Origin: Antedon mediterranea
Taxonomy: Eukaryota > Animalia > Echinodermata
Assembly: GCF_964355755.1 (NCBI RefSeq)
Contig: NC_092671.1
Coordinates: forward strand, 28,960,104 to 29,024,103
Reading direction: 5' to 3'
DNA length: 64,000 nt
Shown here: positions 12,247 through 12,288 of the stretch, piece by piece
How positions within the stretch are numbered: the first letter of the stretch is position 1
Layout of the letters: every line of letters starts with the position of its first letter
Program-made: the position numbers and the translations under genes
Notes under the pieces: model-generated
Told to the model about the DNA's origin: nothing
The model's input: only the letters and a program-made list of their open reading frames with translations
The model's database searches: none

Positions 12247-12288
<42 letters not shown>
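12247..12288 (+). repeat. 42-bp exact duplicate of 28S 10840-10881 (helix 69 / R2 target upstream half). Also at 22356-22397, 31852-31893, 41067-41108, 43741-43782, 54305-54346 and inverted at 41469-41510
   Basis: AGCGCGGGTAAACGGCGGGAGTAACTATGACTCTCTTAAGGT is identical to the 28S sequence. Confidence 0.97.

Follow-up and report, generated by a model that had tools for sequence, protein, structure and literature searches.

A copy of the upstream half of the R2 target recurs in the rDNA spacers of a 64-kb Antedon mediterranea array

R2 5' junctions often bear duplicated 28S sequence that comes from just upstream of the nick and ends at it (Eickbush, Burke and Eickbush 2013, PMC3774820), and 28S duplications have been described at the junctions of both R1 and R2 (PMC2718515). 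The duplications described in PMC3774820 are mostly 13-28 bp long, stand in tandem at the target and have an R2 element behind them; the leaders known from ribozyme-cut R2 RNAs measure 9-36 bases, and longer extra 28S duplications are listed for the horseshoe crab. Other junctions lie farther from the target. An engineered avian R2 with weak second-strand nicking gives rare ‘downstream join’ products in human cells, in which the 5' end is joined close to the Pol I termination region and about 1000 bp of the target is duplicated (Aderounmu et al. 2026, PMC13486585), and a ‘snap-back’ class of R2 junction has also been defined (Lee et al. 2024, PMC11204384). In Hepialus humuli, non-autonomous relics have become fixed in rDNA spacers by hitchhiking, so that concerted evolution has placed nonfunctional foreign sequence in nearly all spacers (PMC10257491).

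The window analyzed here, a stretch of DNA of 64,000 nucleotides (64 kb), is a tandem rDNA array, and the copy of the upstream half of the R2 target found in its spacers is a real and unusual feature. At the start of the first spacer, positions 12247-12288 agree with 28S positions 10840-10881 at 42/42 bases, as the first-pass annotation had claimed. This 42-mer corresponds to 28S from -41 to +1 relative to the R2 bottom-strand nick, which also bears out its reported stop 1 nt past the insertion point. The source and the copies are as follows.

10840-10881, plus strand: 28S source stretch of the 42-mer, with the R2 nick between 10880 and 10881
12247-12288, plus strand: 42-mer of spacer 1, an exact match to 28S, comprising the upstream motif, the helix-69 region and the cut-site motif
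22356-22397, plus strand: 42-mer of spacer 2, exact copy
31852-31893, plus strand: 42-mer of spacer 3, exact copy
41067-41108, plus strand: 42-mer of the truncated spacer 4, exact copy
41469-41510, minus strand: 42-mer within a fold-back arm, exact inverted copy
43741-43782, plus strand: 42-mer of spacer 5, exact copy
54305-54346, plus strand: 42-mer of spacer 6, exact copy

The 42-mer is thus found at 6/6 spacer starts and, with the inverted copy at 41469-41510 that was absent from the earlier list, seven times in the 64-kb window, which also holds the exact sequence at six intact 28S sites. The copy in spacer 1 begins 249 bp behind the Rfam end of the 28S gene and 1366 bp behind the R2 nick. 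When the 3907 bp of spacer 1 were compared with the 18S-to-28S unit, the 42-mer was the sole match at E<1, in keeping with the description of the spacer as otherwise unrelated; the chance expectation for a 42-bp match of this spacer to the rRNA unit is about 2.5e-18.

Like the duplications at R2 5' junctions (PMC3774820), the 42-mer is 28S sequence from just upstream of the nick that ends at the nick. However, it carries 41 bp of this sequence and sits in the 3' ETS, 1.37 kb downstream; no element follows it, and every unit has it. Its 41 nt fall outside the 9-36 nt of the known leaders, and its membership among the classical 5'-junction duplications fails on both length and context. The location recalls that of the ‘downstream join’ junctions, which form about 1 kb behind the nick and near the Pol I termination region (PMC13486585), but those are rare products of an engineered element, whereas here we see a natural, fixed remnant without an inserted body. 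The spacer relics of H. humuli (PMC10257491) resemble the 42-mer in their spread by concerted evolution and differ in that the passenger here is the target of R2 rather than a piece of an element. A literature search over the titles and the beginnings of abstracts of mostly open-access papers returned no report of an R2-target copy in a spacer or of a target decoy. The available portions of a 2024 review of rDNA and transposons (PMC10946416) and of a 2026 review of R2 (PMC13580325, with 0 occurrences of the word ‘decoy’) mention neither.

The copy does lie between a minisatellite and a poly(T) tract, as had been noted, and the surroundings of the copy in spacer 1 comprise the following features.

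8314-11997, plus strand: 28S rRNA gene of the spacer 1 unit (Rfam)
11985-12020, plus strand: hairpin at the 28S 3' end and the start of the 3' ETS, with a similar fold in public locus L002
12115-12195, plus strand: 9-bp minisatellite, 6-10 copies per unit
12196-12246, plus strand: 51-bp left flank, present within the spacers at this place only
12283-12301, plus strand: 7-bp direct repeat (12283-12289 and 12295-12301), the first copy spanning the right junction
12304-12331, plus strand: T run, 21-28 bases by unit and 28 bases in spacer 1

Fifteen bp of flank separate the right edge of the 42-mer from the T run, which is a candidate Pol I release element. The 7-bp repeat that spans the right junction recurs within 12 bp, as happened in 134 of 20000 shuffles (p=0.0067); this test was post hoc and one of about seven made on the flanks, which leaves the result only modest after correction. 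At the left junction there is no comparable repeat (3 bp, p=0.66 against shuffles). The right junction, unlike the left, has the form of an SD-MMEJ end-joining junction as defined by Yu and McVey (PMC2943611). The 7-bp repeat can supply the +1 base without selection. A derivation of the flanks themselves from decayed 28S was considered and set aside: the left flank is marginal at best (p=0.047 in a local test) and gives p=0.67 against the decayed 28S copy in the R2-site element described below, and the right flank gives p=0.37 locally and 0.10 globally. The right flank shares an 8-base word with that same element, though not significantly (p=0.13). The 51-bp left flank is rich in pyrimidines, contains a 7-bp internal repeat and, on the minus strand, holds a short open frame rich in lysine, glutamate and alanine; it may have been captured from some other RNA.

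The silkmoth R2 recognizes an upstream motif (RUM, -34 to -22) and a cut-site motif (RASIN, -6 to +1, in which +1 is essential), and positions +6 to +37 of its target are replaceable (Wilkinson et al. 2023, PMC10499050). The N-terminal domains of lineage-A R2s bind the upstream half only, and R2 protein covers roughly 40 bp upstream of the nick (PMC11204384). Echinoderm R2s have been placed in the 3-zinc-finger branch (PMC13188248). The 42-mer is identical to 28S throughout the upstream motif and contains the cut-site motif, including the essential +1 base, at the native spacing. A scan of the 64-kb window with the combined RUM and RASIN consensus finds only the six intact 28S sites and the seven spacer copies. 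The functional footprint needs -38 to +1, of which the 42-mer supplies -41 to +1, and its right end falls at the nick (p of about 0.001 for falling no more than 2 bases from it, taking ends as uniform). Because the copy ends at the nick and holds both required motifs intact, its sequence makes a strong case for the link to R2 that the first-pass annotation had proposed.

Given the two intact motifs, the upstream-half binding of lineage-A proteins and the position of echinoderm R2s in the 3-zinc-finger branch, we predict that the 42-mer binds R2 protein, and it may be nicked. Set against the silkmoth target (PMC10499050) and lineage-A binding (PMC11204384), all upstream and cut-site determinants are present at native spacing, the bases from +2 onward differ, and the binding is a predicted one. 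Downstream of the nick, only +1 is common to the spacer copy and 28S, and bases +2 to +5 differ, so the copy lacks the +1 to +4 sequence with which an RNA tail would pair. Since avian lineage-A priming is described as requiring that the RNA tail pair with the primer (PMC12180492), insertion at the spacer copy is predicted to be poor. The 42-mer is accordingly not an R2 element and would work like an R2 target half-site, and each rDNA unit likely carries a second, passive R2 binding site. The I-PpoI recognition site, which is 15 bp long and spans -11 to +4, is not intact in the spacer copy, where 3 of its 15 positions differ.

It had also been argued that the copy is fixed in all six spacers. 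Its presence at each spacer start stands, but carries no weight, as the flanks are equally identical. In 7/7 aligned spacer starts, the non-repetitive flanks are the same, the only exceptions being the lengths of repeats and of the T run and one base in 5-bp repeats. The last 700 bp of five spacers show one differing column, and an alignment of five 28S genes has 10 variable columns out of 3684. The 42-mer is no more uniform than what surrounds it, and its fixation is therefore evidence of concerted evolution only. Nor does its identity to 28S call for selection, as 42 identical bp are also expected of a young neutral copy. The R2-site part of 28S hardly varies across animals (PMC3774820), so the identity of the 42-mer does no more than bound the age of the copy. 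At assumed substitution rates of 1e-9 to 1e-8 per site per year, the mean wait for a first substitution in 42 bp is 2-24 Myr.

Four sequencing runs, of 20 found, were compared over the region that begins at the 28S end and stops just short of the 42-mer. Those from three other organisms (B, C and E) cover the minisatellite only (4-5/30 bins) and are unusable as relatives. The fourth, run X8, has the same organism label as the window and comes from another sample and study; we guess it to be RNA. It covers 30/30 bins and shows two differences from the window in one 115-base contig of this stretch before the 42-mer. At that flank difference of 2 in 115, the probability of a perfect 42-mer is 0.48. 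Depth in X8 is close to 1e6 over the 28S end and drops beyond it to between a few hundred and a few thousand, a profile that fits pre-rRNA read-through or DNA background. One low-depth X8 contig, at 43510-43544, departs from the reference on both sides while its letters are still 3' ETS-like; it may represent a second, diverged type of rDNA or come from a different species present in the sample. Scans of public collections with 28S-end patterns returned 0, 4 and 1 loci, five in all. Genuine spacer is present in just two of them, L002 with about 1.5 kb and L004 with about 2.6 kb. None of the five shows a further 28S fragment derived from the R2 region, and the 42-mer was found in 0/2 of the informative spacers, both of them distant. 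On the minus strand of L004, about 0.9 kb behind the end of the 28S gene, there is a histone H1-like gene with a 3' stem-loop (1803-2490).

The window also contains a second R2-site junction, which gives further context for the 42-mer.

41816-42401, plus strand: non-coding element ending exactly at the R2 nick, with its 3' junction at 42401/42402
41347-41822, minus strand: 476-bp inverted copy of 40755-41230 (28S end from +1064 of the nick, 3' ETS and spacer start), forming a snap-back-type junction

The first-pass annotation took an R2-site insert as a sign that such elements act here. The insert is real, but neither it nor the rest of the 64-kb window holds an R2 reading frame, and it shows past R2-type activity rather than a live element. 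It contains a decayed copy of 28S-upstream sequence (42067-42136, 48 of 65 columns identical) and a perfect 26-bp antisense piece of 28S (42017-42042, corresponding to +109 to +134). It also carries two repeats of about 100 bp that are 75% alike and fold no better than shuffles (z -0.64 and -1.04). Its 3' tail is structured (fold z -2.75). An Rfam search of the element found no fitting family (best E 1.4), and inspection by eye revealed no convincing ribozyme fold in it. The element probably represents the 3' portion of an R2 or of a derivative that is not autonomous. Sequence resembling 28S also occurs in the 3' UTRs of some fish R2s (Kojima et al. 2016, PMC5035012), a parallel to the decayed upstream copy that concerns this neighboring element and not the spacer 42-mer. 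At its other end, the element joins the inverted 476-bp copy through a short shared word, and this inverted copy starts at +1064 of the 28S R2 nick, in resemblance to the ‘snap-back’ junction class (PMC11204384). The center of the fold-back (40755-41822) lies within 5-bp repeats, and the structure could be a chimera of the assembly or of a read, or a real rearrangement.

We consider the 42-mer likely to be a repair scar that R2 made and that was then homogenized through the array, leaving what is likely a passive second binding site. A fixed R2 scar was among the alternatives offered at the outset, and it fits the evidence best, accounting for the end at the nick, the junction repeat, the uniform spacers and the second R2-site junction. 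R2 protein would have nicked the 28S target while covering some 40 bp upstream. Repair synthesis starting at a 3' ETS break would then have copied the upstream half as far as the nick; alternatively, an R2 cDNA headed by upstream 28S sequence would have been joined some 1.4 kb farther downstream, its body being lost later. End joining with a little templated synthesis could close the gap and supply the +1 base, and unequal exchange and concerted evolution could then fix this unit type, with too little time elapsed for a substitution. Selection is unnecessary to explain the scar, its fixation or its identity. In support of a scar, the left junction of the 42-mer lies at +1366 and the R2-site element of the same window snaps back to +1064, and that element has itself captured two pieces of 28S, one perfect and one decayed. 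Against the cDNA route, a 41-base leader exceeds the known range and no R2 body stands behind the 42-mer, a problem of leader length that copying up to the nick would avoid. The close fit of the 42-mer to the functional R2 footprint at both ends also weighs against a scar, as selection would give the same.

Such a fit could instead reflect use by the host. That the minimal R2 target in every repeat is a dead-end decoy, which is bound and nicked and primes poorly, or a domesticated nick site for copy-number control, strikes us as doubtful. A selected host decoy, the inference drawn in the first-pass annotation, would place a second R2 site in each unit to trap complexes in a poorly priming dead end or to divert insertions from 28S. 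The complete upstream and cut-site motifs (-34 to -22 and -6 to +1) at native spacing, binding to the upstream half alone by lineage-A N-terminal domains (PMC11204384) and the 3-zinc-finger placement of echinoderm R2s (PMC13188248) all favor it, and the foreign bases at +2 to +5 would interfere with pairing of the 3' tail (PMC12180492). Once bound to a target, moreover, R2Tg does not exchange to another before priming (PMC12222951). Predicted binding and poor priming, together with this lack of exchange, therefore make a decoy feasible. We nevertheless judge it unlikely and found no positive support for it: fixation and identity are explained neutrally by concerted evolution and youth, and the +1 base by the junction repeat. 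The copy is missing from both informative foreign spacers, the three other organisms matched at the minisatellite only, and one decoy per gene would at most about halve the hits on 28S. Insertions stand at 0/7 spacer copies and 1/7 28S sites, numbers too few to test. Less likely again is a tolerated or favored second nick site. Nicking within the 3' ETS would then encourage unequal exchange and the upkeep of copy number while leaving 28S unbroken, or the site would serve R2 as a transcribed landing pad next to an uninterrupted 28S. A role for R2 in maintaining rDNA copy number has been proposed for Drosophila, and the same review treats that role as possibly specific to Drosophila (PMC13580325). 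The 42-mer precedes the T run and the probable RNA of X8 covers the 3' ETS to 43730, at a low depth that could also be DNA background, but no insertion or breakpoint occurs at any spacer copy in the 64-kb window, and the center of the fold-back is in the 5-bp repeats.

The remaining readings fare worse. The copy includes the helix-69 region, which folds in place with the T run 15 bp on, and it had been suggested that this hairpin acts as RNA in 3' ETS processing or Pol I termination. This is improbable, as the 42-mer extends past the predicted hairpin on both sides and folds no better than shuffles (z -0.88, and +0.83 for the whole segment), and the 28S end already has a hairpin of its own, which is also seen in L002, a locus with 1.5 kb of spacer and no 42-mer in it. 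Templated insertions in general need no retroelement, but an R2-independent event whose ends match the R2 site by coincidence is more improbable still, given the low chance (about 0.001) of an end within 2 bases of the nick and the presence of an R2-site element. Long rDNA arrays are hard to assemble, and the fold-back could be a chimeric read; yet an artefact in which a collapsed consensus was pasted into each unit is the least credible reading, as the units differ in the lengths of the minisatellite, T run and subrepeats and at scattered 28S bases while sharing the same junctions in 7/7 cases.

Even as a neutral scar, the 42-mer would document in nature the transfer of the upstream half of the R2 target into the 3' ETS by R2 repair, for which the only other description we found concerns engineered R2 in human cells. 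It would also show that a unit type of this kind can take over an rDNA array. With a complete upstream half and a foreign downstream half, it offers a natural substrate on which to examine R2 binding, nicking and priming when downstream 28S is missing, a question relevant to the off-target behavior of R2-based gene insertion. Were a decoy true, it would be, within the literature searched, the first described target-mimic defense against a eukaryotic site-specific retrotransposon, and conservation in relatives would open the question of hosts limiting R2 via target mimics.

Other features of the array are of interest in their own right. The spacer at 12360-15264 consists of subrepeats of about 300 bp separated by 5-bp repeats, with a subrepeat number that varies by unit. 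These subrepeats resemble the region before the apparent transcription start and are likely spacer-promoter duplications, judging from this similarity. The first 18S gene is interrupted at 897-6941 by an AT-rich DNA transposon of about 6 kb with 13-bp terminal inverted repeats and a 4-bp target duplication. It carries a RING-like frame on the minus strand (5180-6043) and a transposase-like frame broken by apparent introns, and is presumably Chapaev-like.
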